The notes under the pieces were generated by a model. The model was not told where the DNA came from. It made no database searches and was given only the letters and a program-made list of their open reading frames with translations. From NCBI GenBank assembly GCA_041660065.1, contig JBAZXC010000002.1:25084-89083 (forward strand): a stretch of 64,000 nt of DNA, read 5' to 3'. The DNA comes from Parcubacteria group bacterium. GTDB taxonomy: Bacteria > Patescibacteriota > Minisyncoccia > Moranbacterales > GCA-2747515. Made by a program: the position numbers and the translations under genes. Shown here one piece after another: positions 13,143-40,796 of the stretch (the first letter of the stretch is position 1; each line of letters starts with the position of its first letter).

Positions 13143-13940
13143 TCACAAAAAAAGCGAGATCATATGCGGATAGACATTTTGCACGACAAATGCCGCACCC
13201 AGACCAAAGATGAGAAACGGACCAAAAGGCACTTCCGTCTTGAGAGATCGTTTTTTGATCACCATAAGACCGATCCCATAGATCGCACCCACGCAAAACG
13301 CTACCAAAAGTGCGATAAACGTGCCGATCGGTCCCAAAAGAAGTCCTATGGCAATCGCGATAAACGCATCCCCATATCCCATCCATGTTTCATCGGAGAT
13401 ATAACTCAATCCAAAGAAAAAACAAAACGCCACCACTGCACTCATGCCATGCGTAAAAGAAACACTACTCCACACATCCGTCCAAAAAGCGTCAATATGA
13501 AGATCTCGTGTCATATTTGCAACGATAAGCAATGCAATAGCCATCCACATCACATTCATGGGAATTTCCATGTATTTCCAATCATACACAAAAATAACGA
13601 CCAGATGCGCAAACACAAAAGCATACAGCACCGCAACAAGAAGATGATCAATTGATCCATGCACAAAAAAAGCACCAACAGCACCAAAGATCGCTCCCGT
13701 AGCAAACTCGACCAACGGATATTGCATCGAGATTTTCTTTTGACATGCGCGACATTTGCCACGCAATAAAATATAACTCAAAACCGGAATGTTATCTTTC
13801 CATGCAATATTTTTTTTGCACTGCGGACAGTGTGATTTTTGCACGACCAATCCCTCCCCTGTGCGCAAACGGCAAATCACCACATTGCAAAAACTCCCAA
13901 TCACCAACCCATAAATAAAAAAGAGAATTATATAGATCAT
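13143..13940 (-). CDS. pilD: Prepilin peptidase (A24 family, PilD-like)
   Basis: N-terminal TM helix, zinc-binding CxxC...CxxC (CPQCKK...CRACQKK) in the first cytoplasmic loop, and a polytopic membrane domain. Confidence 0.85.
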   Translation of the reverse strand: MIYIILFFIYGLVIGSFCNVVICRLRTGEGLVVQKSHCPQCKKNIAWKDNIPVLSYILLRGKCRACQKKISMQYPLVEFATGAIFGAVGAFFVHGSIDHLLVAVLYAFVFAHLVVIFVYDWKYMEIPMNVMWMAIALLIVANMTRDLHIDAFWTDVWSSVSFTHGMSAVVAFCFFFGLSYISDETWMGYGDAFIAIAIGLLLGPIGTFIALLVAFCVGAIYGIGLMVIKKRSLKTEVPFGPFLIFGLGAAFVVQNVYPHMISLFL

Positions 13941-14010: not shown

Positions 14011-14427
14011 CTAGCATCCTTCATCGCTGACAAAACCGATCTCACTGTACGTGATGCTTGTACAATTTCCCGCGTTTCCCGTTCCCGGGGTGATTACAAT
14101 CTCAAAATGTCCGTCAAAATCACATTGTATCGGCACTGTGACCGCACCAATATGTGCATCATCAGGATACACGCTATCAGCCAGATCCGTATCACTGCAA
14201 ATCGCCACAGTAGAGCCTGCATTGACCGCCTTACTTTGGATGTCTCCATTCTCATCACAGCACATAATACCCGCCTTGTGGATCGTTGCCGCACTCGACT
14301 TGAATGAAGCGTCCTTTGCCTTATTACGTGCATATCCCAAGGTCGTCAAGATGATTGACGCCAAAATACCAATGATCGCTATTGTGATCAAAAGCTCGAT
14401 CAATGTAAAGGCTTTTTTGGTATGCAT
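14011..14427 (-). CDS. Type IV pilin (major-pilin-like) with a Cys-rich, Ser/Thr-rich C-terminal domain
   Basis: MHTKKA|[19 protein letters not shown]. The residue at -1 is Ala rather than the canonical Gly. Shares the ARNKAK(D/Q)ASFKSSA segment and the Cys pattern (CC...C...C...GC end) with the pilin at 34054-34440. Confidence 0.8.
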   Translation of the reverse strand: MHTKKAFTLIELLITIAIIGILASIILTTLGYARNKAKDASFKSSAATIHKAGIMCCDENGDIQSKAVNAGSTVAICSDTDLADSVYPDDAHIGAVTVPIQCDFDGHFEIVITPGTGNAGNCTSITYSEIGFVSDEGC

Positions 14428-14524: not shown

Positions 14525-15241
14525 CTATAAATAGGCACGGTGTTTGAACTCTTTGCTACTTGAGGGAATGAAAAAAGTATCCATTTGCCAAAAAGATTTA
14601 TCATGTTTTCTCAACATTAGATCAACTATTTCTATTGGAGAAAAACCCCGCTCTTCCATATATGCACACATTTGATAATATTTGAGGCTATCGTTTGTAA
14701 TTTGAAAGTTATAAGTCTCCAATATTATCAATTCAGCAGATCTGATAATTTCTTTTGCGCCCTCTAAAATTGGTATTTCAAATCCATGTGTGTCAAGTTT
14801 CAATAAATAAGGACCTTTCAACTGTCTTCTTTTGATCTCATTGTCAAGTGAAATTGCGTGTACTTCAACGCCATTTTCAAATGGTGTATCGGATGCCAGT
14901 CCTCCAAACTTAGCATGATTATCAAAATAGATTTTTCCATCTTTTTCGCCTGCTGCTGCAACTATAAATTGGGCATTTTTATTTTTGTGAACAAATTTAT
15001 TGAGGTCATCAGTGTGTGCATCTTGCGCATCTACAAGTAGATAATCTGCCTTCGGAAAAGTTTCCATGCAAAGTTTCGACCACTGGCCATTGGATGCACC
15101 TATATCAATAACAGTCTTGGGGTTTATTCCTCTCTGAGAACATCTTTTCAGCCCACCCCTCATTGTTAAATTTTCACCATGAATCTGACTATGAATGAAT
15201 TCGGATGTTTCTCTTTTAAAATTTAAGATACTGTTTATCAT
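14525..15241 (-). CDS. FkbM-family methyltransferase
   Basis: IDIGASNGQWS motif and a C-terminal KLDTHGFE...ILETYNF region, characteristic of the FkbM family. Confidence 0.7.
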   Translation of the reverse strand: MINSILNFKRETSEFIHSQIHGENLTMRGGLKRCSQRGINPKTVIDIGASNGQWSKLCMETFPKADYLLVDAQDAHTDDLNKFVHKNKNAQFIVAAAGEKDGKIYFDNHAKFGGLASDTPFENGVEVHAISLDNEIKRRQLKGPYLLKLDTHGFEIPILEGAKEIIRSAELIILETYNFQITNDSLKYYQMCAYMEERGFSPIEIVDLMLRKHDKSFWQMDTFFIPSSSKEFKHRAYL

Positions 15242-15249
15242 AATATTTA

Positions 15250-15345
15250 TGTTTATAAATTATTTTTTATGTCATTCCCGCCCTCCACAGGCGGATAAAT
15301 TCCAGCGGGAATTTTGCTTCCCCCTTGTCATTCCCGTGAAAACGG
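15250..15345. repeat. Two hairpins sharing ATTCCCG/CGGGAAT stems
   Basis: attcccgccctccacaggcggataaattccagcgggaat and attcccgtgaaaacgggaat. The second is exactly ATTCCC-N8-GGGAAT. They lie between the GT4 gene stop and the FkbM gene start. Confidence 0.7.
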
Positions 15346-15350
15346 GAATC

Positions 15351-16595
15351 TTAGCCCTTTTCCAATAAAATATCTTCATATAATTGTATGTATTTTTTTG
15401 CGACAATTTTTGAGTCAAATGTTGCCACTACTTTTTTCCTTGCATTTACTCGGAGATCCGCACAATTTTCATTATGCAAGATCCATTCAATGCCCTGGGC
15501 CAGATCCTTTGTGTCAAAAGGTTTTGCCACATATCCATTTTTTTTGTGATCGATCATGTCACTGTTGCCACCAATATCAAATCCCACAACAGGCGTCGCG
15601 CATGACAAACTCTCCATGATGGCATTTGAGAGATTTTCCTGTAAACTCGGTACCACCATCACATCAGCGGCACTATATAGGTTCACCAACTCCATATCAT
15701 TGTTGATGTGTCCCAAGTAATGTGTTTTAAAACCAAAATCCTGATCTTGATCCTCTTTGGCATTTCCAAAAACCACCAGCTCGATATCATCCGACTGCAA
15801 TTGATGCAATGCGGCGCATAATTCTTTAAAGCCTTTTCTGGGATCTTCTGTAGAATTTACTGCGCCAAACAGCACAAGCTTCTTATCCTGTGGCAAATTG
15901 AACATCTTCCGTGCCTCGGTTTTTTCCACTGCACAAAACACCGTCGTATCTATAGGATTTGGCAAGTTGATGTGCCGGTGATTTTTGAGCAGACTGCTTT
16001 GCTTGGAACACTCCGTCAACCATTTGCTTAAGCCGACTATGGTCAAATTTTTCATTTGAGAAAAAACATCACTCTTTCTTTTGAAAATTTTTCTACTGAG
16101 GTCTTTCTCTTTTTTACTGCGCAATACTTTGCAATTTCCGCATTGCGCATGATATAAACCACATTCATCATCATAATGACATCCGCCCGTAAATGCCCAC
16201 ATATCGTGCAATGACCACACAATAGGTGCGTTGATTTTTGACAGATCCTCTATTTTTATCATGCCCAGACAGATCCAGTGCAAATGCACAATATCAGGAT
16301 CAATCTCATTGATACGATCCACGATGCTCCTGTGAGGAAACCATGAGGAACTGAAAAATGCTTTCGTCTTATTGCGATAGGGATACAAATGAATCGCATC
16401 TATAATTGGACGCAAGTTATTGAAAAATTTGTAAATTTTGGATTTTTCAGTTATTACAGTCTCATCATCGCTCCTTTTGTACTGCACAAGCATCTGACTA
16501 TCGATGCCCTGACCTAACAACGAACGATGAAGTCTATGTGCCGCCCGTGCCGCACCACCATAAATATCAAATGTATTAACTATGAGTATTTTCAT
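15351..16595 (-). CDS. Glycosyltransferase family 4 (GT-B, Glycos_transf_1)
   Basis: N-terminus GGAARAAHRL and C-terminus VVPSLQENLSNAIMESLSCATPVVGFDIGG (E-X7-E-like motif). Confidence 0.8.
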   Translation of the reverse strand: MKILIVNTFDIYGGAARAAHRLHRSLLGQGIDSQMLVQYKRSDDETVITEKSKIYKFFNNLRPIIDAIHLYPYRNKTKAFFSSSWFPHRSIVDRINEIDPDIVHLHWICLGMIKIEDLSKINAPIVWSLHDMWAFTGGCHYDDECGLYHAQCGNCKVLRSKKEKDLSRKIFKRKSDVFSQMKNLTIVGLSKWLTECSKQSSLLKNHRHINLPNPIDTTVFCAVEKTEARKMFNLPQDKKLVLFGAVNSTEDPRKGFKELCAALHQLQSDDIELVVFGNAKEDQDQDFGFKTHYLGHINNDMELVNLYSAADVMVVPSLQENLSNAIMESLSCATPVVGFDIGGNSDMIDHKKNGYVAKPFDTKDLAQGIEWILHNENCADLRVNARKKVVATFDSKIVAKKYIQLYEDILLEKG

Positions 16596-17422
16596 TTTAT
16601 AATTGATCTCTTTATAGATTTTAACGTAGTCTCCATAAATTTCAAAATAGGAAAAGAAAATTTTGATAACTTCTCAAAAAATCTTATTTGAACCCAATTT
16701 TGGTCTTTAACTTTGACCTTTTGAAAGATCGTCGCATGACTTCCTGCCAATTTCCCAATCACTTTGAGCCCCATCATCATCGCAAAGAGATTGAATGTGT
16801 ATCGGAAATGAAAATTTTGAGGCAGATGACACTTGATAACGGGGAAAAAGCAATTTGCGATGATCAAATAGCCATCTTTTTTTACGGCTTTTATCATCCC
16901 CGCAAAATCCTCTAGAGGATCCGAAACGTGCTCCAAAACATCCGTACTCACCAGACAATCATATTCAAAATCCAATTTATCCACGATTGTGATATTTCCA
17001 AATTCCTCCGCTCTTTTTAAACCAAATTCACTTGGATGCGGTTCATAAATATTTACACTGCTTTTTCCATCTTTTTGCGCCACCAATCTCGCCAAAGTGC
17101 CGAAACCTCCGCCGTAATCAAGCACGTTTTTTATGTCATGATCGACAATCCAATCACTTATGGCATGACGGTGACCCATCGAAACATCATCCTGCTCTAT
17201 AAATAATCCGTTTAATAACCAAACCGGATGAGAATAATATCGTGATATTTTCTCAAAATTATTTTTTTTATTATCGCACCCATATTCATCCCAAACCAAA
17301 TCCATCAAATACCACATTTGCTCAAGATCATCGACCATGCTCGCATTGGCCTTTTGCAATAGATTCACGACCTCTCTCCTTTCTCTTTCTGTTAAATTTT
17401 TATCTTCTAAACTGATTTTCAT
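16592..17422 (-). CDS. Class I SAM-dependent methyltransferase
   Basis: Motif I VLDYGGGFGTLARL. ATGA overlap with the downstream gene. Confidence 0.65.
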   Translation of the reverse strand: MKISLEDKNLTERERREVVNLLQKANASMVDDLEQMWYLMDLVWDEYGCDNKKNNFEKISRYYSHPVWLLNGLFIEQDDVSMGHRHAISDWIVDHDIKNVLDYGGGFGTLARLVAQKDGKSSVNIYEPHPSEFGLKRAEEFGNITIVDKLDFEYDCLVSTDVLEHVSDPLEDFAGMIKAVKKDGYLIIANCFFPVIKCHLPQNFHFRYTFNLFAMMMGLKVIGKLAGSHATIFQKVKVKDQNWVQIRFFEKLSKFSFPILKFMETTLKSIKRSIIK

Positions 17423-17485
17423 AAATTATCGAGATTGATTATGTGATAAATATATACTGTAAATACGACTTTAAAAAATAGGTTG

Positions 17486-18211
17486 TTATATCGAAACGCT
17501 AATTTTTTTCCTAGCAATAACTACGTTATCTAAGTATAAATTATCATTTTTTGGCAGTATTTTTGATAAAATTGCCCCAACGATATTTACAGGCGCTATC
17601 AAAATAATAGTTATCAACACGTTTAAATAATTATTTTTTGTTAATGTTACGTCATATATATATGACGTAACTAACTGAAATATCGTTTCTATTCCTTTGC
17701 TCGTTTTTCTACTATCCAGCATCTCAAAACCATGCTCGCTTAAAATATGTTTTAAGCCAAATGATGTATATCTTGCAAAATCATATGGCTTTTCATGTTC
17801 TTCCCAAACGAGGGGAACGGTCAATAAAAAAATACCATCTTTTTTTAAAACTCTATTAGCCTCTTTCAAAAAATGACCTGGATTAAACACATGCTCAAAA
17901 ACTTGACTGGAAATTAAGCTATCAAAACTTGCATCACCAAATGGCATTTTATTACAGTCATAAAAATAATCCGCTTTTTCATTTGGTCTTCCTTCTACAT
18001 CAAGTCCAATATACTCATCACACACACACAAATTTTCGTATGGCTTTGATCCGCACCCAATATCCAAAACCCTGCCCCTTAAATTTACTATTAGATCTGA
18101 TACATTCTTATGCAAACCCCTTCTTGAAAAATAAAAAGGATTTATAAACAAACCAACAAAGCTGGGATTGAACTGCTCTCTTTCATATAATAACCTTATT
18201 TTTTCCAGCAT
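17486..18211 (-). CDS. Class I SAM-dependent methyltransferase (Methyltransf_11-like)
   Basis: Motif I VLDIGCGSKPYE and motif II/III LISSQVFEHVFNPGHFLKEANRVLKKDGIFLL. Confidence 0.7.
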   Translation of the reverse strand: MLEKIRLLYEREQFNPSFVGLFINPFYFSRRGLHKNVSDLIVNLRGRVLDIGCGSKPYENLCVCDEYIGLDVEGRPNEKADYFYDCNKMPFGDASFDSLISSQVFEHVFNPGHFLKEANRVLKKDGIFLLTVPLVWEEHEKPYDFARYTSFGLKHILSEHGFEMLDSRKTSKGIETIFQLVTSYIYDVTLTKNNYLNVLITIILIAPVNIVGAILSKILPKNDNLYLDNVVIARKKISVSI

Positions 18212-19119
18212 AACTTTTTCTCAAACAAATATTTTTTAAATAGTTTATAAAAGGATGTATTTCTCTTATAAAATTTTATGATCTTACGCACCGCCAAATC
18301 ATTCTCTCTCAAAACTGCATCCATTCTTACATTATATGATGAATTAAGACTGTTTTTGAAGATATCACCCCCTCGACAATTATGCCCGCTATCATCAATG
18401 CCTATATTATCGACAAAAGTTTTAGCTGGATTTAAACAGAGTCCACCCTGTTTAAATATAGTAGCATACCAAAAAATTGCCCACGTATCATTTTTTTTCA
18501 TTTTATTGGCGATGATCTGATCCCAAAACCCCGTTCCATTACATACGTTAAATTTTTTGATAGCTTTTTGATCAAATGTGGCAATGATTTTATCAAGATC
18601 TTTCTCAAAATATTGCCACCGATCGCGCCATGTTGCCCACCCCCAGCAATTCATACCCCTCCAAAGGAAAACATCATCAAGCCCATCGGTGTCGATTGGA
18701 TAATTCCATCCGCTGATATGCCACACTTTTTTTTCATTCTCATAATAATCCAATGCATCATTCATAAATTTCAAAAAGTATGGACTCGTGACCAGATCAT
18801 CTTCCAGCACAATAACCTTTCCATACATATTCACGATTTCCGTAACGCCGTCAATGATGGAATTTGCGAGTCCTTTGTTTTTTTCTTGCTCAATAATCGT
18901 CACTTTTTTGAATCCTGTTATGGTTTTGATATATGCACGCACCGCATCCACATCCTCTTGTACTTTTTCATCTCGCGCATTATCGCTATACACAAAAAGA
19001 TCGCTATCAAGCGCAAGATCATTTTTTTGCAACGCCTCAACCGTCCGTCGCGTATGCTCAGGGCGGTTATATACAAACAATACAATTGGCGCTAAATTAT
19101 GCATTTTTTTGAGTAACAT
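18196..19119 (-). CDS. Putative glycosyltransferase (GT-A-like; family uncertain)
   Basis: N-terminal IVLFVYNRPEHTRRTVEAL...LFVYSDN followed by a DD-containing segment (VIVLEDDLVTSPYF). A near-identical copy of its 5' end lies at 19998-20207. Confidence 0.45.
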   Translation of the reverse strand: MLLKKMHNLAPIVLFVYNRPEHTRRTVEALQKNDLALDSDLFVYSDNARDEKVQEDVDAVRAYIKTITGFKKVTIIEQEKNKGLANSIIDGVTEIVNMYGKVIVLEDDLVTSPYFLKFMNDALDYYENEKKVWHISGWNYPIDTDGLDDVFLWRGMNCWGWATWRDRWQYFEKDLDKIIATFDQKAIKKFNVCNGTGFWDQIIANKMKKNDTWAIFWYATIFKQGGLCLNPAKTFVDNIGIDDSGHNCRGGDIFKNSLNSSYNVRMDAVLRENDLAVRKIIKFYKRNTSFYKLFKKYLFEKKLCWKK

Positions 19120-19139
19120 TGGAAAATATATTATCTAAA

Positions 19140-19931
19140 TTATTTTTTAAGAATTGCGATAATGTTTTGAAATGCATAAATTTCACAAAACACTGGTGAA
19201 TAGTCTTTTATTTTCAAAAGTTCTCCACCAGGCAAAATTCTATAGAAATTATAATTTGGTAGAAAATCCCAAAAATCTTTAAAATTCGTTCTGCTTATAA
19301 TATTCATTTCATTGAATTCAAAATGTATAGCATTTATTTGATTATTTTTTATATACTTCTCAACACCTCTCAAAACATTAAACTCATTACCTTCTACATC
19401 AATCTTTAATAGATGTATTTCTCTAATATTGTGTTCTTGAATAAACGAATCCAAAGAAATCACATCTACCAAATGTGAGACAGCGTTCCCCTTGTGCAAA
19501 TCCTCAATAACATTTTTATACAATGAGGCGTGCGAAGACCCGTCATTACAATCATAATCATATAATTTCATCACACCACTCTCATTTCCCACCGCTACGT
19601 TATATGCAGTGAAATTATCACTCTTTACTTTGTTAATTAATTTTTGATATGTCCTGGGATGTGGCTCAAATGCAAAAATAATGCTACTATTATTCATTTT
19701 TAAAACAGTGGAAGAATAATTTCCAACGTTTGCGCCAACATCAATAACAATTGGGGATTTTTTGTTGTCCAAATATTTCTTGAGCCATATATTCTCGCCA
19801 GTTAGATAGCTACTTTTATAATTCAAGACACCCAATCCTCTCAAGCCCAATTGGTAAATTAGTCTATTGAACTTTCTAAATATTTTTCTACAAAATATAT
19901 ATGCGTACAGATTGTATATTTTTTCTATCAT
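19140..19931 (-). CDS. FkbM-family methyltransferase
   Basis: VIDVGANVGNYSS...FAFEPHP...LLKIDVEGNEFNVL. Confidence 0.75.
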   Translation of the reverse strand: MIEKIYNLYAYIFCRKIFRKFNRLIYQLGLRGLGVLNYKSSYLTGENIWLKKYLDNKKSPIVIDVGANVGNYSSTVLKMNNSSIIFAFEPHPRTYQKLINKVKSDNFTAYNVAVGNESGVMKLYDYDCNDGSSHASLYKNVIEDLHKGNAVSHLVDVISLDSFIQEHNIREIHLLKIDVEGNEFNVLRGVEKYIKNNQINAIHFEFNEMNIISRTNFKDFWDFLPNYNFYRILPGGELLKIKDYSPVFCEIYAFQNIIAILKK

Positions 19932-19997
19932 TTAGTTTGTTTTTTATTAAATCACACAGATCATCATCTCCACACAAAATATTTTACACCCCTGAAT

Positions 19998-20207
19998 TTA
20001 TATTTCAAAATAATTAATCCGAACATACTCACCAAAGACAGCCACCCGATGAACAAGATACTTACAATTTTTATCTCGCGCATTATCACTATACACAAAA
20101 AGCTCGCTATCAAGCGCAAGATCATTTTTTTGCAACGCCTCGACCGTCCGTCGCGTATGCTCAGGGCGGTTATATACAAACAATACAATTGGCGCTAAAT
20201 TATTCAT
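19998..20207 (-). pseudogene. Truncated duplicate of the 5' end of the glycosyltransferase gene at 18196-19119
   Basis: About 145 nt (20063-20207) match 18970-19113 with about 4 mismatches. The encoded MNNLAPIVLFVYNRPEHTRRTVEALQKNDLALDSELFVYSDNARD then diverges and terminates after 69 aa. Confidence 0.8.
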
Positions 20208-21333
20208 CTTTTTGTGTTAATAAATACAACGCTCTTTGCACAACAAATCTATGAGAATCTATTTTTATATTATGCAACAAAAGCAAATTCCGTTCTACAA
20301 TACTTTTTGTGGGAAAAAATGTTTTTCTTGCTATATTTGTAATTCCCTGAATAAATGTCACTTTCTGTAACATTCCATTCATGGCCTCTTCATAATAACC
20401 GCGATAGTATTTTTCAAAAAGGCACAGTGACGTAGTATCATTCAATCTTTCATATTCCGCACCAAGCAAAGAATTCAAATGATCCATATCATATACTACT
20501 TCATCCTCCTTTACTATACACAACTGACCATTACGTTTCTTGTGAAAGATAATATCAAAATCTTTTAGCCCATCTTTTTCAATGTCTAAAATCACACTGT
20601 AACTATCGTCACTTTTTTTCTCAAAACCATCCACATCAAAATAAAAATTTCCTAGACTGTAAAAGATCATGCTTTCGCCATATTTTTCATATCCCTGAGG
20701 CACGTGTGGATGATGACCGATCACGACATCCGCGCCAATGTCACAAAAACGCCTATATTGCTCACGCCACTCTTTGATAGGAAAATCGATATTCTCCACT
20801 CCTGCATGTGCCAACACAATGACAATGTCAACATTTTTTTTCAATTCTCGCACACAATCCTCCAGAGATCGATGCAATATCCACGCATATCCGCTACGAC
20901 CCCTATCTTCATCCAAACATCCAAATTCATTTTCACATCCAGCGATCAGGCCTATTTTTACACCATTTGTCTCCACTACCTTGGGCTGATACGTCTGGGC
21001 AAAATCCCTACCACATCCAACATATTGTAACCCATGATCTTCCAACATTGACATTGTATGTGCCATGGCAATATCACCATAATCATAAATATGATTGTTT
21101 GCCAATGATACATAATCAAATCCATACTTTCGCAACTGCGGGATCATCTCTGGTGCTTGCACAAGATGCGGACCCGCTTTTTTTATGGGATGTGCTCCAT
21201 CAGTTTTTATCGACGCCTCAAAATTACAGATTGCAATATCCGCATTTTCTACAACTTTTCGTATGTTATCATCCAAGAAATCTTTTGCATCAGTACTGAC
21301 GATATCCCCACATGCAAATATTTTTACACCCAC
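20200..21333 (-). CDS. CapA-family (PGA_cap) metallophosphatase-like capsule/polymer biosynthesis protein
   Basis: ICNFE...LANNHIYDYG...VVIGHHPHVPQG motifs of the CapA / calcineurin-like family. Confidence 0.7.
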   Translation of the reverse strand: MGVKIFACGDIVSTDAKDFLDDNIRKVVENADIAICNFEASIKTDGAHPIKKAGPHLVQAPEMIPQLRKYGFDYVSLANNHIYDYGDIAMAHTMSMLEDHGLQYVGCGRDFAQTYQPKVVETNGVKIGLIAGCENEFGCLDEDRGRSGYAWILHRSLEDCVRELKKNVDIVIVLAHAGVENIDFPIKEWREQYRRFCDIGADVVIGHHPHVPQGYEKYGESMIFYSLGNFYFDVDGFEKKSDDSYSVILDIEKDGLKDFDIIFHKKRNGQLCIVKEDEVVYDMDHLNSLLGAEYERLNDTTSLCLFEKYYRGYYEEAMNGMLQKVTFIQGITNIARKTFFPTKSIVERNLLLLHNIKIDSHRFVVQRALYLLTQKDE

Positions 21334-21352
21334 AGTTTTTGTTACTTAACAA

Positions 21353-22954
21353 TTACGTATATGATTGCGTATCTTTTATGCCTTTTTCAATCGCTTTTAC
21401 CACACAATAATCATACAATGCTCGTAAAAATTTGTTTTTTACTCCACACAATTGTAGCACGCCACGAATTTTTGGAACATGCAATAACTTATTCTGTAAA
21501 GACTGGTACAAATTCGTATTATCTAGTAATTTATTAATTTGCACAAGTCTGTTCTCATCTATGTATTTTTTCATTTTATCTGCATCAATTGGTTCAAATC
21601 GTGTCTTTCTTGCTACTTCATAATTCAAATCATTGTTTTTATCAGATTTTAAATCCATTTCTTCGAGATTGAGTCCAAAGCGCGCAAAAAAATCTTTTTC
21701 CCACACTCTATTTTTTCTCCGTTCATCAGATATATTCAAAGTTGCCTTTACGATATCAAAATTCAGGAATGGTGTCCAAACGGGCATGCCGAAATATTCA
21801 GGTATTTGTGTAAGATATGAGAGAAGAATCAACTTCACGCGCATTGCAAGAATTGATTTTATCTTATCATTTTTTAAATATTCACAATTCCTTTTATAAT
21901 ATTCTTTTTTCAATTTTTCATTACTCTGCAAATTCAGATATTTCAGATCCAAACTCATTCCATGCGCATACCCCAAATTAATAATATCGTGATAATTTTC
22001 TATTTCATCGAATTTACCTAATTCTGCCCACGCATCACCAATAATACCACTCAAAAAAGAAGACCCCGAGAAATCATGTCCTTTGGAAATATTTTTATAA
22101 AATTCTATATGATACATCCCATGAAGATGTGTGCTAAAGCCATATATTTTATACCATTTATCGATATATTTATGATACTCTTTTAATTCTATTTGCTCCC
22201 ATTTCGTATTGTAGATCTCTGATATTTTTTTTGCATGCGCCACTTCATGACTTTGGCTCTGATCTTCACTAACGCCATAAGTAAAACTTCGTATCCTTTT
22301 TTTATCTTTAACGAGATGATTTAACATACGACTATCATACCCGCCAGAAGTTGGGATAACTATATCGCCAACAGTTACAGATTCAACATCGGTTATATAT
22401 TTTTGCATGAGATCTATCACATCATTTTCATCTGACACATCTGCCAAAAAACTATCATCCAGAACAGGATCTTCTTTATATTCTATTTCTGCATGATCAG
22501 ATATGGTCAACGTGGAATAATATCTCATGAATTTTACATCTGCAAAGATCGTTTGTTCAAAAACACTATATCCAAATTCACAAAAATTCGACAATCCCTC
22601 TTCATGAATTTTTTTATCTCTTAAACAAAAATTAGATAATGTGGAAACGATATTTTCTTTTTGGTTGTAAAATACCGGGATAGACCCCAACCAATCATTT
22701 TCAACGATAATATTATCGCCTTCAAAACTGATCAGAATATTTCTATCCAAAAGACCATCGTTTAAGGGAAATGACAAAGAATATTTGCCATTGATCTTAT
22801 GTAGCTCAATATCTCCAATACCCCACAAATAGATATTATGATGACCATGTTTAACTACAATAGTTTTTATGCCAACATCAAAAAAATCAACTTCAGGTGA
22901 TCTATTTTCTTTTGTAATGAGAAATCCTATTATTTTATTCATTATAAAGATCAA
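21353..22954 (-). CDS. Asparagine synthetase-like PP-loop amidotransferase (no N-terminal glutaminase Cys)
   Basis: PP-loop motif VIPTSGGYDSRMLNHLV. 533 aa. The N-terminal ~200 aa domain is of unknown type. Confidence 0.6.
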   Translation of the reverse strand: MIFIMNKIIGFLITKENRSPEVDFFDVGIKTIVVKHGHHNIYLWGIGDIELHKINGKYSLSFPLNDGLLDRNILISFEGDNIIVENDWLGSIPVFYNQKENIVSTLSNFCLRDKKIHEEGLSNFCEFGYSVFEQTIFADVKFMRYYSTLTISDHAEIEYKEDPVLDDSFLADVSDENDVIDLMQKYITDVESVTVGDIVIPTSGGYDSRMLNHLVKDKKRIRSFTYGVSEDQSQSHEVAHAKKISEIYNTKWEQIELKEYHKYIDKWYKIYGFSTHLHGMYHIEFYKNISKGHDFSGSSFLSGIIGDAWAELGKFDEIENYHDIINLGYAHGMSLDLKYLNLQSNEKLKKEYYKRNCEYLKNDKIKSILAMRVKLILLSYLTQIPEYFGMPVWTPFLNFDIVKATLNISDERRKNRVWEKDFFARFGLNLEEMDLKSDKNNDLNYEVARKTRFEPIDADKMKKYIDENRLVQINKLLDNTNLYQSLQNKLLHVPKIRGVLQLCGVKNKFLRALYDYCVVKAIEKGIKDTQSYT

Positions 22955-23594
22955 CTAATAAAGATGTGTAGGAAATATTATTCTCTGTAAATTGTTTCCT
23001 TAAATGCCTTGGAACGCTCTGAATCATTTTTTCATATTCTTCATCATTATCTGTAAATCTACCTTTATAATTTTTTGAACATCGCGAGATATATCCATTT
23101 TCAAAATTAAGATCTGATGTATGAAAAACGCCATCTTTATCAAAATATTCAAGCCCTTTTATCTTGTAGCCACATCTCTCTGCAATTTGTTCAAGATCAT
23201 CAATGCTGTAATGATATTTATGATCATCTGCACCAGGCTCAGTGCCATTTTTTCCAGTCAACTCACGCACATATATTGATGGGTGATATGCATCTGGCAC
23301 GGCTATTCTAATTACACCATTTTTACTTAAATACTTTTTTGCAATTGAAAGAAAAAACAGAAAATCATCATATACCAAATGCTCTATCACATGCTCCAAC
23401 AATATCTTGTCAATTTTTTTATCACCAAAAATAAAAGCAAAATCACGCTCTTGCGTAATATCAAGCTCATCAATATCTGTAGCGACCCACCCATCAAATT
23501 CAGTAAAGTTTGCCCCAGCAATCAATTTGATCGACGGGTTTTTTTGAATCATATATTTTAATATATTTTTTTTTATTTTATTCACAAATTGCAT
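22935..23594 (-). CDS. SAM-dependent methyltransferase (Methyltransf_11-like)
   Basis: KLIAGANFTEFDGWVATDID (an LNxGCG...GWxNxD-type motif I variant) and ILLEHVIEHL...LSKNGVIRIAVPD. Confidence 0.5.
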   Translation of the reverse strand: MQFVNKIKKNILKYMIQKNPSIKLIAGANFTEFDGWVATDIDELDITQERDFAFIFGDKKIDKILLEHVIEHLVYDDFLFFLSIAKKYLSKNGVIRIAVPDAYHPSIYVRELTGKNGTEPGADDHKYHYSIDDLEQIAERCGYKIKGLEYFDKDGVFHTSDLNFENGYISRCSKNYKGRFTDNDEEYEKMIQSVPRHLRKQFTENNISYTSLLVDLYNE

Positions 23595-24372
23595 ATAGAT
23601 CCTCTTGTCCTAAATTATTAATATCATCATGCATCACTTCCGTTGCATCTAATTTATAGGTTTTGTATCTGTTTTTTGTGAGATAATCTATTACTTCACT
23701 TTTACTTTTTCCTTGCTTGTCTAATAATATTGGAGAATGTTCAAAAATAATCATTTTAATAGCATTAGATTGCAATTTCTTGCATGATCCTTGTAAAACA
23801 TCATACTCCAATCCTTCCACATCAATTTTTAAAACATCTATTTCTTGAATCCCCTTTTCTTCACAAAATTGATCTAGCGTTATTGTTTTAACTTGCACGG
23901 ATTTTTTAGCTTTCGCAATATGATTTTGATCAAGAGAATGATGCCCATACGAATCAAAAAGGTGAAATGTCGCTACGCCATTTTCATTTGAGACAGCTTG
24001 CTGAACTAACTCAACATTGCTAATATTATTCACCTCAATATTTTCATTAAATCTTTTTATGTTGTCCAAATCAGGTTCAAACGAGTAGACCTTCTCACAA
24101 TGTCGTGCCATCCACATAGTTGTAATCCCGATATTTGCTCCAATATCTATTCCAATTTTTGATTTTTTGATTTTTTTATCCAATGCAATCATCATCGGAA
24201 CAGCATCACAAGAGTTTTTTGTTGAAAAAATATATGCAAAATTATCTTTGAAATTTCTTTTTGCAAGTATCCCCATTCGATCTTTATGATAAAATTCTAC
24301 ATCATATTTTTTAAGTATATGCGAAAATATTTTGAATTCATATTTTTCAATTAGTTTCATTATTCTATTCAT
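23578..24372 (-). CDS. FkbM-family methyltransferase
   Basis: GIDIGANIGITTMWMARHCEKVYSFEPD...LKIDVEGLEYDVL. Confidence 0.75.
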   Translation of the reverse strand: MNRIMKLIEKYEFKIFSHILKKYDVEFYHKDRMGILAKRNFKDNFAYIFSTKNSCDAVPMMIALDKKIKKSKIGIDIGANIGITTMWMARHCEKVYSFEPDLDNIKRFNENIEVNNISNVELVQQAVSNENGVATFHLFDSYGHHSLDQNHIAKAKKSVQVKTITLDQFCEEKGIQEIDVLKIDVEGLEYDVLQGSCKKLQSNAIKMIIFEHSPILLDKQGKSKSEVIDYLTKNRYKTYKLDATEVMHDDINNLGQEDLYAICE

Positions 24373-24378
24373 ATTTTT

Positions 24379-25796
24379 TTAATTTTTTAGATATCTTCTT
24401 TTACTTAAAGCATACCCCCTTCTAAAAAGACTTGCAAAAAATAAGCTTTTTGATTGTGTGTAGAAATTAATCCTCGTTTTATTATAAATAACTAGTGAGA
24501 TATATCCTGCAAATGCGTATGAAATTAGAGTTGCCCACGCCGCACCCTCTATTCCCATTTTTGGAATTAAAATATAATTCATAAATATATTTATGACTGC
24601 ACCACTTGCAGTATTAATAAAAGAAAATATTTGCAGATTTTCCGTCACAAGCCACTTTCCACTTGCAACTCCCAAAACACAAAAACACCAGCCCAAATGT
24701 ATATTGTAAGCACACCTGCAGCTTGTGCATACTCTGCGCCATAGAGAAAATTGATGATCCAGCCACTCAAAAACGTCATTGGAATGGCAATGGCAATCGC
24801 CATCCATACCATCATATCATATAATTTTTGCAATCGTGCATAATATTCCTCTTCATTTCTCTTTTTTGTCACGATAATCGCGGGAAAGACCGAAGCGGTT
24901 ATGATTGTGGGGATAAAATACCACATTTCACTCAAATTGACCGCCACAGAATAGCTCCCGAGTGCCTCATAGCCCATCATATTACCAATCATCACCTGAT
25001 CGATACGCATATAGATCATCACAGAAATCGCAGATAATATGAGTGGCCATGAATCTTTCAACAAATCCCTCGCCACACCACGGTCAAACACCCACTTGCT
25101 GACATGTTTCTTGTTCTTATAATATGCAAAAGCAAAACCAATCGCCACAAAGATCGATTCCAATAACCCGACACTCGCAAACCATACAAGTGACGCACCC
25201 GTCGAAACTAAGCAGATCTTGATCGCTGCACTGATCAAAACCGCGGCGCTGCGTGAATATACAACGTATTTTGACACAACCTGCGATTGAAACCAGAGAT
25301 CGATCACATCCGCCGCTTGAAATACCAGGGTAAACGATACTGTTGCAGTTATGATCGTAATGAGGATATCCCCTTTCAACACATGCGCAGTGACGACAGC
25401 GAGCACGACCGCGAGCATGCCACCCCATAATTTGAGATAAAAAACTGTCCCGAGGAGTTTTTCTTTTTTGATCTTGCCCTCTACCAATTCCCTCACTGCA
25501 ATTGCGTCAAGACCCAACTTGGAAAAAACGCTAAAAAAACCTACAAGTGCTCCGGCATAACTCAAGACACCATATTTTTCCGGTCCCAAATAACGGATGA
25601 CCCACACGCCCACAAAAAAAGCCACTGCCATACGAATTGCCGTATCCAGAAAAAGCCAGTTCGCATTAGTGATGATCTTTCGGAGTTCGTGATGTGCGCG
25701 ATACTCGTGCCATTTTTTTTGCAAAAAATTTTTCATGTAATTATATCTTATATACATCATTTTTTTTAGCCATTCTCTTTTCGTGCATTTTATCAA
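24379..25796 (-). pseudogene. wzx: Wzx-like oligosaccharide flippase (PST family) split into two overlapping ORFs (24645-25796 and 24379-24807). Either a frameshift or a sequencing error.
   Basis: The 383 aa N-terminal part has the polysaccharide-biosynthesis-protein TM pattern (LGPEKYGVLSYAGALVGFFSVF...). The 142 aa ORF continues the TM domain in another frame, with a 160 nt overlap. Confidence 0.6.
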
Positions 25797-26517
25797 AATA
25801 TAGGAGTGCAGCGATCAATAAAGTGCTTTTACAATATTTTTTGTATAAAATTTCATGCTCATTATTATGTCTTGTCAGAGTTGTTTGTGAATCTTCTCTC
25901 ATATGAAAATTACATATAATTGTATCAATAAAACGAGAACGAACTTTATTTTTTGCTAAACGCAACCACATATCATAATCCATATTGCTACGCAAATTCT
26001 CATCAAATGTGCCGTAAACATCAAATACATCTTTTTTCAAAAAAACACTCTGATGCATCACATAATTCATCAGAAGCAAATACCAAAATCGTATTTTGTG
26101 ATGGCTTTTTCCATTCAGTACAACAAGAGAGGTATTATTAATGGTATTGATGACATGTGCCTTTCCATAGATCCAATCAGGACTATCATTCTTCTGGATG
26201 AAATCACTCACATTTTTGAGCACATCATGATCATAAAAACTGTCGTCAGAATGCAAATGATTGATATATTGCCCGGAAGATCTTTCGATCCCCTCATTCA
26301 TTGCATGTGATATGCCTCGCGGTTCAGATTGAAAGACCTTTACTCTGTCTGGATGCTTTTGCCGATATTTCTCTATGATCGCCATTGTGCCGTCAGTAGA
26401 AAACCCATCAATGAAAATATGTTCAAAATCTTCGTATGTCTGCGCTTCCACAGAATCGATATTTTCTTGCAAATATTTTGCACTGTTATATGTGCATGTA
26501 ACAATTGAAAATCTCAT
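25741..26517 (-). CDS. Glycosyltransferase family 2
   Basis: MRFSIVTCTYNSAKYLQENIDSVEAQTYEDFEHIFIDGFSTDGT plus a DxD/HSDD region. Tandem paralog of the next gene. Confidence 0.8.
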   Translation of the reverse strand: MRFSIVTCTYNSAKYLQENIDSVEAQTYEDFEHIFIDGFSTDGTMAIIEKYRQKHPDRVKVFQSEPRGISHAMNEGIERSSGQYINHLHSDDSFYDHDVLKNVSDFIQKNDSPDWIYGKAHVINTINNTSLVVLNGKSHHKIRFWYLLLMNYVMHQSVFLKKDVFDVYGTFDENLRSNMDYDMWLRLAKNKVRSRFIDTIICNFHMREDSQTTLTRHNNEHEILYKKYCKSTLLIAALLYFDKMHEKRMAKKNDVYKI

Positions 26518-26576
26518 AATTATACTTTATGAACGGATATCCTATTCAACAACGATTTAAATATTTTACTAAAAAC

Positions 26577-27356
26577 CTACACTTTATACAAAGAAATTTT
26601 GTATAATAAAAATTTATACAATGTAGTAAAAAGTATAAGAAATTTTCTCACAAACCGATTTTTGACATACCTCTCGTAGAGAATCACATTTTCTGTATTT
26701 GCTCTCCCAATGGTGCTTTGCGCATCTTCTCTGATCGAAAAATTGCAAATAATCTCATTGATGAATTTTGCATGAACATTCTTTTGCGTCAATTTCAACC
26801 ACAGATCGAGATCCATATAATTCTTGAGCGTTTCGTCAAAATATCCGTACTTTTCAAAGATTTGCTTTTTGATAAAAACGCTTTGATGTGGGATGTAGTT
26901 GCTCACCAACAAAAGCAACCAAAATCGCGATTTATCATAAAAATATCTTCGCGGCGGTATGATCGTTGTTTTTTTATTTGCAACATTTACTACTCTCGCT
27001 TTGCCATAGAGCCACAAAGGTTCATGATTTTTTTTGATGAAGTCATCTACTTTGCGCAATACGTGATCGTCATAAAAGCTATCATCAGAATGGAGATGGA
27101 TCAGGTATTCTCCCGCAGACCGCTTGATCCCCTCATTCATTGCATGTGATATGCCTCGCGGTTCAGATTGAAAGACTTTGACTCTATCCGGATGTTTTTG
27201 CTGATATGTCTCTATGATCGCCATTGTGCCATCAGTGGAAAATCCATCGATAAAGATGTGTTCAAAATCTTCGTATGTCTGCGCTTCCACAGAATCGATA
27301 TTTTCTTGCAAATATTTTGCACTGTTATATGTACATGTAATGACTGAAAATTTCAT
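26577..27356 (-). CDS. Glycosyltransferase family 2 (tandem paralog)
   Basis: MKFSVITCTYNSAKYLQENIDSVEAQTYEDFEHIFIDGFSTDGT. The first ~50 aa and two internal nucleotide tracts are near-identical to 25741-26517. Confidence 0.8.
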   Translation of the reverse strand: MKFSVITCTYNSAKYLQENIDSVEAQTYEDFEHIFIDGFSTDGTMAIIETYQQKHPDRVKVFQSEPRGISHAMNEGIKRSAGEYLIHLHSDDSFYDDHVLRKVDDFIKKNHEPLWLYGKARVVNVANKKTTIIPPRRYFYDKSRFWLLLLVSNYIPHQSVFIKKQIFEKYGYFDETLKNYMDLDLWLKLTQKNVHAKFINEIICNFSIREDAQSTIGRANTENVILYERYVKNRFVRKFLILFTTLYKFLLYKISLYKV

Positions 27357-27391
27357 AAATCAAAAAATATCTTTTAATAATCTCCTATAAC

Positions 27392-28411
27392 TCATTTCTT
27401 CGACGCAAAAAATCCCACACCGAAATTCTTAAACCATGTAGAAAAATCTTGCGCAACTCGTCTACGCTGGATATATCGCCTTTTTCTGCAAAGGGCCCGC
27501 ATATTTTTTATCACATCCCAAAACCCGCGAAGGGTCACACATGCGAGATCGACAGCACTAACATTTTTTTGAAATCGTTTCACGACGCCTGTGCCTCGCA
27601 TTGACAGCGTAAGCAGATATGGATACCTGATCACAGAAAGAAAAATCGCTTTCCAAAAAAAACATCCCGGATAATTTTTGATGATATTGTAAAAAAGATT
27701 TCTATTGGTATGAAACGCGATGAATTTGGAATACCCTCCGGATGTCGCATTTTTGTGATGATAAACAATTGATCGCGGATTATATTGACATTTCCACCCT
27801 CGCAATCGTGCACGCCAGCCCATGTCGAGATCTTCGAGATAATACGCATACTCCTCATCAAAGAACATCCCTTCCTGCTTGATGTCATTGAGCAGTCGTG
27901 TGCTAAAAAGCGCTGCCGCGCCCGCAGGACAGAACACCTCACATGCGTCATTTGCTTCGCTGGATGTTTTATCCATGAGCCGATTGATCGCCATCCCATC
28001 GGGCGTAATGACCAATCCGGCAGAATCGATCACGCTTTTATTTGCATACATCAAGATCTTTGGCGCGACCATCTCCACATGATCTTTTTTATCAACACGT
28101 GCGACCAGCTCAGTGATAAATGCCGGATCAACCTCCGTGTCATTGTTAAGCAAGATGATATTTTGCGCGCCATGGTCGATCGCTGTTTGGATGCCGACAT
28201 TGTTTGCCTTGCAAAAACCGGCATTATATCCCATGTCGATCACAAGCACCTCGGGAAATGCGTTTTGCACCATTGCGATCGAACCGTCAGCAGATCCGTT
28301 GTCCACAACAAAAACCGCGTGCTCGCACGGCTGTGCGTTGCGCAATGACAGCAGACACTGTGCCAAAAGCTCCTTTCTATTATAGTTGACGATGACAATT
28401 GCGTTTTTCAT
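27392..28411 (-). CDS. Glycosyltransferase family 2
   Basis: MKNAIVIVNYNRKELLAQCLLSL...FVVDNGSADGS. Start placed at the internal Met, giving an ATGA overlap with the upstream GT4 gene; the ORF extends to 28540. Confidence 0.75.
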   Translation of the reverse strand: MKNAIVIVNYNRKELLAQCLLSLRNAQPCEHAVFVVDNGSADGSIAMVQNAFPEVLVIDMGYNAGFCKANNVGIQTAIDHGAQNIILLNNDTEVDPAFITELVARVDKKDHVEMVAPKILMYANKSVIDSAGLVITPDGMAINRLMDKTSSEANDACEVFCPAGAAALFSTRLLNDIKQEGMFFDEEYAYYLEDLDMGWRARLRGWKCQYNPRSIVYHHKNATSGGYSKFIAFHTNRNLFYNIIKNYPGCFFWKAIFLSVIRYPYLLTLSMRGTGVVKRFQKNVSAVDLACVTLRGFWDVIKNMRALCRKRRYIQRRRVAQDFSTWFKNFGVGFFASKK

Positions 28412-29577: not shown

Positions 29578-29584
29578 AGTAAAA

Positions 29585-30496: not shown

Positions 30497-30503
30497 ATAC
30501 TCT

Positions 30504-32261: not shown

Positions 32262-32265
32262 ACTG

Positions 32266-34053: not shown

Positions 34054-34440
34054 CTAACAACCTGCGAAAGTTGTCGATGTTTCTGTAACTGTTGCACTTG
34101 TACAACCACCTGCTTCATTTGCATTTGCTGTAACAGTAAGTCGGAATGTACCACCTGCACACTGGTTGCCAATGGCGATGCTGCTGATAACCGGTGAAGC
34201 TGGATATGTTGCCTGTACTGCCGGGCTACAAATTTCTGCACCTGAAGTAGTTTGCAATGCGCCACCCACCTGATCACAACACAAAATTGCTGCTGGAGCA
34301 ATTGATGATGCTGATGATTTGAATGATGCTTGTTTTGCTTTATTACGTGCACTGTTCAACGATACCAAAACAATAGATGCCAAGATACCGATGATCGCGA
34401 TCACGATCAAAAGTTCAATCAATGTAAAACCTTTTTTCAT
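34054..34440 (-). CDS. pilA: Type IV major pilin (PilA-like)
   Basis: MKKG|[32 protein letters not shown]. Cys-rich C-terminal domain ending in a Ser/Thr-rich tail [15 protein letters not shown]. Confidence 0.85.
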
Positions 34441-35850: not shown

Positions 35851-35992
35851 AAAAAATAGTTTATAAAGTTAAAAGTTTGTAAAGTTTAAATTTTATAAAG
35901 TAAATAATAATTCATATTTGTAATAGCATAAGATTGTTATTGATTGAAAAGACTTTATGAGCTTTTCACTTTCGACTTTATAAACTGCTTAT

Positions 35993-37093: not shown

Positions 37094-37141
37094 AATCCGT
37101 ATATATTTTTATTTTAATTTAAGACTTTCTGCAAACATCTC

Positions 37142-37531: not shown

Positions 37532-37561
37532 AGGTTTTCTTTATAATGAAATAAGATTTTA

Positions 37562-39292: not shown

Positions 39293-39307
39293 AATTCTGT
39301 AAAAAAA

Positions 39308-40021: not shown

Positions 40022-40047
40022 ATTTTTATTTTATTAGTAAATATACA

Positions 40048-40749: not shown

Positions 40750-40796
40750 ATTTTTATTTTTAATGATTTAAAAAAATATATATAAAAATTTATACA

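Follow-up and report, generated by a model that had tools for sequence, protein, structure and literature searches.

A GC-poor, methyltransferase-rich gene block as the possible exchangeable tail of a glycosylation island within a type IV pilus operon of a Parcubacteria group bacterium

What is a block of glycan-modification genes, poorer in GC than its surroundings, doing inside a type IV pilus operon, and how did it come to be there? We addressed this question in a stretch of 64,000 nucleotides (nt) of an ultrasmall bacterium of the Parcubacteria group (Moranbacterales; assembly GCA_041660065.1, contig JBAZXC010000002.1, positions 25,084 to 89,083), here called the window, to which all coordinates refer. 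The block is part of an island of about 20 kb (14525-33996) located between two pilin genes within the pilus operon, and all genes there are encoded on the minus strand. On balance, we lean towards the view that 14525-24680, together with a smaller patch at 25741-27356, is the laterally exchanged variable tail of a pilus-operon glycosylation island, and that it diversifies a glycan linked to the pilin. A previous reading of the same DNA, made without database searches (hereafter the sequence-only reading), had described an AT-rich module packed with methyltransferases for a modified surface glycan, of mosaic and lateral origin.

In the sliding-window and per-gene analyses, the GC content of 14525-24680 was 34.0%, compared with 43.2% for the remaining window, and the 10-kb window with the lowest GC in all 64 kb begins at 14501, coinciding with the block that had been noted. 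The mean GC at third codon positions (GC3) was 0.305 for the 11 block genes and 0.437 for the 44 other genes (Mann-Whitney p = 3.9e-6), and GC1 and GC2 of the block genes were likewise below those of the other window genes. The heterogeneity of synonymous codons in the block reached chi2 = 531, while the maximum among 200 random 11-gene sets taken as controls was 78. The two genes with the lowest GC of the window, FkbM3 (29.3%) and FkbM2 (29.7%), belong to the block, and a further low-GC patch (25741-27356, 34%), consisting of two tandem GT2 genes, lies just beyond the block as it was first delimited. The block is compositionally foreign, and the resident copy is compositionally unameliorated. 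The AT-rich sub-island that had been perceived by eye was thus borne out by numbers, with GC and codon usage strongly deviant precisely over the block instead of uniform; the flanks had been taken to have 45-50% GC, and the measured value was 43%.

The features of the block are listed below, with their strand and the evidence for each. Handles beginning with L denote loci or contigs retrieved for comparison; the most informative one is L046.

14525..15241, minus strand: FkbM methyltransferase 1 (FkbM1; Pfam 41.5 bits; TIGR01444 74.6 bits, 1e-20)
15351..16595, minus strand: GT4 glycosyltransferase of the cassette (GT4a; Pfam)
16592..17422 and 17486..18211, minus strand: two class I S-adenosylmethionine (SAM) methyltransferases, MTa and MTb (Pfam)
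18196..19119, minus strand: GNT-I-like GT-A glycosyltransferase (Pfam GNT-I 27.5 bits, GT2)
19140..19931, minus strand: FkbM methyltransferase 2, RfbT-like (FkbM2; Pfam 7.3e-27, 95.0 bits)
19998..20207, minus strand: duplicated N-terminal fragment of the GT-A gene, 69 amino acids (aa), a pseudogene remnant (sequence and repeat comparison)
20200..21333, minus strand: PGA_cap protein with CapA-like metallophosphatase fold (Pfam PF09587, E 1.7e-56, 192 bits)
21353..22954, minus strand: AsnB-fold PP-loop enzyme without glutaminase nucleophile (NCBIfam asn_synth 3e-8, and fold)
22935..23594, minus strand: probable class I SAM methyltransferase (MTc; Methyltransf_23 26.0 bits, cut-off 27)
23578..24372, minus strand: FkbM methyltransferase 3 (FkbM3; Pfam 8.2e-27, 94.8 bits; L046 ortholog 60%)
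24379..25760, minus strand: wzx-type flippase gene, frameshifted (Pfam Polysacc_synt 89 bits)

The gene content found with Pfam and NCBIfam agrees with the proposed module of glycan modification rich in methyltransferases, although the counts had to be revised. Three FkbM genes, and not four, were found, all of them exceeding the profile threshold (PF05050 / TIGR01444); the supposed fourth one, at 19931, is the other end (the minus-strand start) of 19140-19931, and the open reading frame (ORF) adjoining it, 19998-20207, is the GT-A fragment. Among the three class I methyltransferases that had been named, those at 16592 (Methyltransf_23, 38.5 bits) and 17486 (Methyltransf_11, 50.6 bits) are above threshold, whereas the one at 22935 falls short of its cut-off. 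The GT4, GT-A and CapA-like proteins were recovered by Pfam as expected, and for the AsnB-like PP-loop protein, weak in Pfam, the NCBIfam match, the SGGxDS motif and the fold agree. The exact FkbM2 sequence was matched in a look-up only by a 1-kb fragment from sequencing run SRR18595301.

Upstream of the island, the gene order is recA, pilM, pilN, pilO, pilB, a response regulator, pilT, pilC and pilin 1; downstream, it continues with pilin 2, pilD, three minor pilins and a LamG-domain protein. From pilin 1 through the LamG gene, the intergenic gaps range from -133 to +109 nt, and a promoter/terminator scan of the island gave counts barely above those of shuffled sequences and not concentrated at gene boundaries. 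The features of this setting and of the island core are the following:

34642..41849, minus strand: type IV pilus machinery, pilM, pilN, pilO, pilB, response regulator, pilT and pilC (Pfam; order conserved in relatives)
34054..34440, minus strand: pilin 1 (Pfam N_methyl; prepilin leader MKKG/FTLIE)
32266..33996, minus strand: MP1, membrane glycosyltransferase of predicted GT-C fold, the proposed pilin glycosyltransferase
30504..32261, minus strand: MP2, GT-C paralog 46% identical to MP1 (sequence comparison)
29585..30496, minus strand: GtrB/DPM1-like polyprenyl-phosphate glycosyltransferase (Pfam GT2 77.7 bits and two C-terminal transmembrane helices)
28408..29577, minus strand: GT4 glycosyltransferase with host-like GC, island core (Pfam; orthologs in L004, L010 and L046)
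27392..28414, minus strand: GT2 glycosyltransferase with host-like GC, island core (Pfam)
26577..27356 and 25741..26517, minus strand: two tandem paralogous GT2 genes, GC 34% (Pfam)
14011..14427, minus strand: pilin 2, paralog of pilin 1 and distal boundary of the island (Pfam N_methyl; alignment)
13143..13940, minus strand: prepilin peptidase PilD, conserved downstream anchor (Pfam A24)

The ORF of the GT2 gene at 27392 reaches 28540, but its relatives have 340 aa. The tandem GT2 pair contains a 300-nt direct repeat of 80% identity, and its L046 orthologs are 64% and 80% identical. The two pilin genes have a 122-nt repeat in common. Since the island lies within the pilus operon beside GT-C enzymes adjacent to a pilin, the likely acceptor of the glycan is the pilin; the sequence-only reading had spoken of a generic surface glycan, of which the modified glycan stands, while the pilus-operon setting, by which synteny points to pilin, had been overlooked. 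In pilin 1, Ser and Thr make up 25% of the globular part, the ortholog alignment shows a conserved Ser-rich patch (KSSxSS), and no N-x-S/T sequon is present, so that an O-linkage is more likely. A stand-alone response-regulator receiver gene (37142-37531) lies between pilB and pilT, and the same slot is occupied in essentially all the retrieved pilus loci of the Candidate Phyla Radiation (CPR, or Patescibacteria). The minor-pilin set ends with a 464-aa protein (9651-11045) that carries a LamG/pentraxin-like lectin domain and is kept in relatives (L004); by analogy with the lectin-like PilX of TM7x, it may be a tip adhesin.

The gene of MP1 begins 57 nt after the stop codon of pilin 1. MP1 and MP2 have about 575 aa each, the relatives of MP1 are from Candidatus Moraniibacteriota, and no Pfam or NCBIfam family, tetratricopeptide repeats (TPR) included, was found for either protein. 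The AlphaFold2 model of MP1, built with 32 homologs, had a mean predicted local distance difference test (pLDDT) of 86.9 and a mixed alpha/beta C-terminal domain, and its Foldseek matches were STT3/PglB, ALG12, DPY19, ArnT and AftA, with E-values down to 3e-7. Both proteins carry the sequence DDHYFH in the first extracytoplasmic loop, about 10 residues past the first transmembrane helix; within the family, at least 90% of the sequences retain D55, and F58 and H59 do not vary. Thus, the membrane fold and the acidic motif by which the GT-C superfamily is recognized are both present. A Wzy/EpsG-like polymerase was ruled out for MP1 and MP2 (EpsG 20.9 bits, threshold 30.1, and both fold searches gave only GT-C enzymes), and so was a WaaL/PglL-like ligase (WaaL 7tpg, Foldseek probability 0.11); furthermore, no Wzy_C domain was matched by Pfam anywhere in the island. 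Tandem GT-C pairs are also found in L010, L011, L015 and L046, and a distant homolog of MP1 in Acidobacteria (25% identity) lies in a locus without pilus setting. While fold and synteny of MP1 and MP2 are clear from model and gene order, a glycosyltransferase activity with pilin as acceptor can only be predicted from them.

The association of this GT-C family with pilus genes extends over many Patescibacteria. A profile search retrieved 2159 cluster representatives, 334 of them at E <= 1e-30. In the locus scan, which took one genome per GTDB species, 40 loci of the family were found, all in Patescibacteria (Moraniibacteriota, Paceibacterota, Saccharibacteria, Parcubacteria and Minisyncoccia). 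Flanking genes were counted in the 25 species-representative loci with at least 4 kb on either side: pilC was upstream in 24, pilD downstream in 23, and both were present in 22; a prepilin motif was located within 3 kb upstream of the GT-C gene in 24 of the 25, and a GtrB-like GT2 gene adjoined it in 20. In most phyla, the minimal module consists of pilin, GT2, GT-C, pilin and pilD. In addition, four proteins (P0369, P0374, P0387 and P0420) are fusions with a GT2 domain at the N-terminus of the GT-C, the fused GT2 domain being 35% identical to the GtrB-like protein of the window. Pilus-locus synteny and these fusions together are strong genomic evidence that the GtrB-like GT2 and the GT-C protein act together in a function tied to pilins. 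The records L006, L009, L016 and L018, titled Micavibrio sp. or Bdellovibrionales, bear typical CPR pilus loci, that of L006 being nearly identical to the L002 contig; their taxonomic labels look wrong, or the bins mixed.

The GtrB-like GT2 of the window has transmembrane segments at residues 228-246 and 259-284, and its best match in the PDB was the dolichyl-phosphate mannose (Dol-P-Man) synthase of P. furiosus (5mlz, E 7e-10). That MP1 and MP2 use a donor linked to polyprenyl phosphate is indirectly supported by the adjacency and the fusions with a DPM1/GtrB-like GT2. A ManC-type mannose-1-phosphate guanylyltransferase is encoded at 50312-51589, and it could supply GDP-mannose to the DPM1-like GT2 of the island.

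The comparison with relatives shows which part of the island varies. In Moraniibacteria-like relatives, the head is conserved (GT-C, GtrB-like GT2, GT4, GT2 and wzx), and the tail before pilin 2 differs from one to another. The closest relative, L002 (PilT 97%, PilC 89%), has TOD1, two methyltransferases and a GT2 there, L004 has a single epimerase, and L010 (PilT 94%) has other genes; neither of the two closest relatives, L002 and L010, has the cassette of the window. It is present in a more distant CPR genome (L046/L050; PilT 91%, PilC 83%) as nine genes in identical order, namely an intact wzx, FkbM3, MTc, AsnB-like, PGA_cap, GT-A, MTb, MTa and GT4a, with 59-77% aa identity to the window. 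Among them, MTb and MTa are 61% and 59% identical to their L046 orthologs, MTc is 66% identical to that of L046 and 65% to that of L052, and GT4a is 60-61% identical to those of L046, Thermodesulfovibrio L047 and L071. Two differences separate the window from L046: the inserted GT-A fragment with FkbM2, and FkbM1, whose slot is taken in L046 by a gene for a 193-aa protein and an AbiEii gene (an FkbM1 homolog is found in L098 at 60%). These two genes (16658-17948 in the coordinates of L046), the second one of the AbiEii toxin family, resemble a toxin-antitoxin pair at the edge of the variable tail.

Traces of recombination were observed at two points of the tail. The GC content falls from about 43% to about 33% at the frameshift site of wzx, the N-terminal part of the gene having host-like GC and the C-terminal tail low GC. 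The 362-aa N-terminal part finds its best matches in CPR loci (67-69%), while the best match of the 97-aa tail is L062, a contig of 25% GC (62%, compared with 49% for L046). This is probably a recombination junction, with a crossover inside wzx and a gene that is possibly chimeric; the frameshift itself could be a scar of the crossover, a slippage-prone site or an assembly error. The other trace is a pair of 150-nt direct repeats (18965-19114 and 20068-20217), 95% identical, that bracket FkbM2 and duplicate the 5' end of the GT-A gene. They appear to mark an insertion or an unequal recombination around FkbM2, and apart from paralog pairs they are the only repeats of the island.

The sequence-only reading had expected a different donor lineage for each gene. 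This is mostly ruled out by the nine genes co-linear in L046 and by the AsnB-like gene, which in a neighbor-joining tree groups with other CPR copies, on long branches nested among non-CPR sequences; the tree suggests a single entry into this CPR lineage and not many donors. The genes that look as if they had been added separately are FkbM2 and probably FkbM1, and no others. The named homologs of FkbM2 (55-60%) are all non-CPR (Psychroserpens, Francisella, Flavobacteriales/Flavobacteriia and Burkholderiaceae), and many of them also match the model of V. cholerae RfbT. Hence, of the mosaic lateral origin, the lateral part is sustained by deviant composition, patchy distribution, a core found in unrelated phyla and recombination scars, while the many donors are not; a block inherited vertically in all relatives, an outcome that would have spoken against it, is not what was seen.

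The AsnB-like, PGA_cap and GT-A genes deserve separate attention. For the AsnB-like protein, 670 homologs were detected, the most similar sharing 74% identity with it; the few whose source is named come from Epsilonproteobacteria, Spirochaetota and Thermodesulfovibrio. Residues S203, G204, G205, D207 and S208 of its PP-loop (SGGxDS) are invariant across the homologs. The N-terminal Cys of an N-terminal-nucleophile glutaminase is absent, since both the window protein and the family consensus begin with MNKIIGF and have no Cys2. The AlphaFold2 model (pLDDT 90.3) was matched by Foldseek to carbapenam synthetase, TsnB9, beta-lactam synthetase and AsnB (1ct9, E 1.3e-10), the carbapenam and beta-lactam synthetases being closest, and the whole protein scored 33 bits with TIGR01536, for a cut-off of 267. 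In the NCBIfam scan, models of PseA/WbuX type were unmatched, and only asn_synth, eps_aminotran_1 and NAD synthase appeared, all far below their cut-offs. An amidotransferase of PseA/WbpS type, as had been claimed, was consequently ruled out, by the lack both of a dedicated family match and of the Cys nucleophile. With this residue absent and the PP-loop invariant, adenylation of a carboxylate and formation of an amide without glutamine hydrolysis are to be expected, and we propose that the protein is an ATP-dependent amide-bond former and not a glutamine amidotransferase.

The PGA_cap gene invariably comes next after the AsnB-like gene. The nearest solved relative of its product is the epimerase MslH (PDB 8gq9), a match to NCBIfam NF038314 was also found, and the family match does not imply a poly-gamma-glutamate function; sequence searches of the PDB with the AsnB-like and GT-A proteins gave no useful match. 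Of 50 metagenome loci, about 30 have the three genes in co-linear order, mostly on contigs of 25-31% GC, and in none of the 50 contigs carrying AsnB-like loci were pilus genes found. The trio recurs co-linearly in L047, L049, L053, L056-L061 and others; extended with MTa and GT4a, it is also seen in ordinary Wzx-type polysaccharide loci, and on one contig of 30% GC it lies within a classic O-antigen-like cluster. In Thermodesulfovibrio hydrogeniphilus (Nitrospirota), the order is wzx, AsnB-like (56%), PGA_cap (51%), GT-A (55%), an unassigned gene, FkbM, a deacetylase and GT4 (61%), within a Wzz-containing polysaccharide locus. The trio is a recurrent, widespread and uncharacterised module of glycan modification, seen in polysaccharide loci of many phyla. 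Speculatively, the residue that it adds could be a uronic acid in amide linkage to an amine or amino acid.

The closest parallel of the trio is the branch of the beta-lactam synthetases, carbapenam synthetases and lasso-peptide cyclases, which share the two-domain AsnB fold, an inactive N-terminal domain without Cys and an intact carboxylate-adenylating PP-loop. Lasso peptide clusters pair MslH, the PGA_cap partner, with an AsnB-like cyclase, and the AsnB-like and PGA_cap pair of the window echoes this pairing of cyclase and epimerase. However, the window pair sits in a glycan cluster beside a GT-A gene, with an identity of only 10-12%, and while that branch acts on peptides, the substrate here would presumably be a sugar carboxylate.

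Regarding the GT-C enzymes, the nearest known system is TfpW of P. aeruginosa group IV (Pa5196/PA7), a GT-C protein encoded directly after pilA that O-glycosylates Ser/Thr of the pilin. Its first periplasmic loop carries a DDx motif that is indispensable, its C-terminal part forms a large extracytoplasmic domain, and its donor is a polyprenyl-phosphate-linked sugar made by separate enzymes (bioRxiv 10.1101/2020.04.19.049825). MP1 and MP2 resemble it in their place after the pilin, and like it they have a GT-C fold, a DD motif and a soluble domain at the C-terminus; the likeness is one of position, fold and motif, and no sequence family links them to TfpW. Moreover, TfpW has a C-terminal periplasmic TPR, which Pfam did not detect in MP1 or MP2, and the donor enzyme here is a DPM1/GtrB-like GT2 instead of the DprE1/E2 arabinose pathway. 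The CPR island also adds Wzx, six further glycosyltransferases and the modification cassette, which implies a complex heteroglycan and not an arabinofuranose (Araf) homo-oligomer.

In the systems of TfpO/PilO (P. aeruginosa group I) and PglL (Neisseria), a lipid-linked oligosaccharide made in the cytoplasm is flipped by a Wzx-type protein and transferred en bloc to the pilin, and the glycan genes are variable and exchanged. Lipid-linked assembly, flipping, en bloc transfer and variable genes are likewise proposed for the island; however, TfpO and PglL belong to the Wzy_C/WaaL-like class, and the island has neither such a protein nor an initiating phosphoglycosyltransferase. From the GtrA/GtrB/GT-C systems (O-antigen glucosylation; CsbB/GtcA/YfhO glycosylation of teichoic acids; Ppm1/PMT O-mannosylation of proteins in Actinobacteria) the island differs in that a small GtrA-like flippase was not identified here and that the module is fixed in a type IV pilus operon, with pilin as the presumed acceptor. 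The archaeal Agl pathway has a Dol-P-hexose synthase (AglJ), soluble glycosyltransferases, a methyltransferase (AglP), a Wzx-like flippase (AglR) and a GT-C enzyme (AglB); here the host is bacterial, pilin 1 lacks the sequon of N-glycosylation, and the homology of AglB and MP1 is at the level of fold, with 9% identity. Lastly, the rfb-type serotype cassettes of enterobacteria have a low-GC variable centre and conserved flanks, are replaced by recombination and are shared across distant taxa. The window block behaves like these O-antigen and capsule cassettes, with the difference that they are flanked by housekeeping genes of galF/gnd type and the block by pilus genes, in a CPR host with a genome of about 1 Mb. 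A variable cassette in the style of O-antigen loci is in itself an ordinary phenomenon.

Putting these elements together, the GtrB/DPM1-like GT2 (29585) would, by homology, load a sugar onto polyprenyl phosphate, and the soluble GT4, GT2 and GT-A enzymes would lengthen the lipid-linked oligosaccharide. Its sugars would be O- or N-methylated by the three FkbM and the two to three class I methyltransferases, FkbM2, RfbT-like, could cap a terminal sugar, and the AsnB-fold enzyme with PGA_cap and GT-A would install an amide-bearing residue. Wzx would then flip the lipid-linked glycan, and MP1 and MP2, in the manner of TfpW, would transfer the sugar or glycan from the polyprenyl carrier to Ser/Thr of the pilins on the external side of the membrane. 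In this scheme the island core (GT-C, GtrB-like, GT4, GT2 and wzx), with host-like GC, would be conserved vertically, and the tail would be replaced through recombination, as O-antigen serotype cassettes are. A bolder version holds that Patescibacteria glycosylate pilins by means of an undescribed GT-C family of the pilus operon, and that the pathway of Moraniibacteria is archaeal/eukaryote-style, primed by a DPM1-like enzyme on polyprenyl monophosphate without phosphoglycosyltransferase; the glycan would grow and receive its methyl groups in the cytoplasm, Wzx would flip it, the GT-C would pass it en bloc to pilin, and its outer sugars would be swapped by exchange of cassettes between phyla. 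Taken in its entirety, we hold this version to be doubtful, and we offer it tentatively.

Several results weigh against an exchanged tail that serves a pilin glycan, and they have to be considered together with the other explanations of the locus. Because the homologs of the cassette in other phyla occupy generic polysaccharide loci, the cassette itself is not pilin-specific. In these Wzx-type clusters it is accompanied by Wzz, sugar-nucleotide genes and Wzy-like proteins, as would suit a general locus for a cell-envelope glycan (a wall or membrane glycopolymer, an S-layer or a general protein glycan), with its position among pilus genes explained by co-regulation or a recombination hot spot. 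The GtrB-like/GT-C pair would then decorate the polymer as CsbB/YfhO-type systems decorate teichoic acids in Gram-positives; pairs of GtrB and GT-C are known to act on acceptors other than proteins, and pilin 1 has no sequon, any glycosylation site in it being putative. Nevertheless, the GT-C gene lies between pilin/pilC and pilD in 22 of the 25 loci, in several CPR phyla, where it is usually the sole glycosylation gene besides the GtrB-like GT2; in the window it starts immediately past the pilin (57 nt from the stop codon), and the island has no Wzy/WaaL-fold polymerase, chain-length regulator or exporter. An envelope glycan therefore seems to us unlikely, if by no means negligible. Other difficulties remain with the pilin-linked glycan. 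No initiating phosphoglycosyltransferase of WecA/WbaP type was found in the island with Pfam, and the reading frame of wzx is broken once, in a T4G3 run (TTTTGGG) near 24680, compared with the intact 453-aa ortholog of L046, so that either the elaborate glycan is not exportable or the assembly contains an indel error. The literature found on CPR pili offers a sequence-based prediction of pilin O-glycosylation and no experiment; the recent genetic study of TM7x pili lists pilin glycosylation as predicted but unexplored and names no enzyme (PMC11623550).

The lateral origin can be questioned as well. The cassette could have been inherited vertically from the ancestor of the window and L046 and lost or replaced in L002 and L010, its low GC being a result of relaxed selection, low expression or AT drift. 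The nucleotide identity of the cassette between the window and L046 (66-71%) is near that of the pilus core genes (70-76%), and with 59-77% at the aa level it falls within the range of the less conserved pilus genes; a neighbor-joining tree, which carries no support values, places the AsnB-like gene with CPR copies; and Pfam found no integrase or transposase in the island, nor does any tRNA flank it, the nearest ones being at 3236-4134. The L046 copy also shows no GC deviation (GC3 ~0.39, and ~0.38 for the L046 core). Set beside the window copy, whose GC3 lies 0.13 under that of its own core, this last result argues against common inheritance, as do the two closest relatives without cassette, FkbM2 as an insertion between 95%-identical repeats, and the GC break inside wzx at the frameshift, where the best match shifts to the 25%-GC contig; it should be noted that the chimera is read from a tail of 97 aa. 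We would thus give purely vertical descent a minor, though real, chance. It is more improbable still that the tail is a non-functional, decaying remnant drifting to AT, as the broken wzx and the truncated GT-A duplicate might indicate: the ten other ORFs of the cassette are full length with respect to their L046 orthologs, catalytic motifs are kept (the invariant SGGxDS, for instance, and FkbM Pfam scores of ~95 bits), and a lone frameshift in a homopolymer run could reflect slippage at that site or an error of the assembly.

If the tail is indeed an exchangeable part of a pilin glycosylation island, it bears on the way of life of these bacteria. Of the organelles by which CPR/Patescibacteria may contact their hosts, type IV pili have the best support, and the cassette suggests that the pilus glycan can be re-tailored through exchange with unrelated bacteria, with possible consequences for host range and phage evasion; in the bolder version, episymbionts would gain a serotype-like variation of the organelle that binds their hosts and serves as phage receptor. 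As far as we found, no earlier description exists of a pilus-operon glycosylation island around a Patescibacteria-wide GT-C family. This family and its GtrB-like partner, between pilin and pilD, are concrete candidates for pilin glycosylation, and since the module is present in Saccharibacteria, Paceibacterota, Moraniibacteriota and others, the question is testable in the cultivable and genetically tractable Saccharibacteria.

Some other features of the window lie away from the pilus operon. The tRNA genes at 3236-4134 are one tRNA-Asp and two tRNA-Met, with an ORF of the 23S-rRNA-intervening-sequence family (3350-3772) between them that shares a few bases with the second tRNA. Elsewhere, the window encodes a small protein with a C39-like peptidase domain (54194-54697) and an 827-aa DUF3160 protein (60220-62703).

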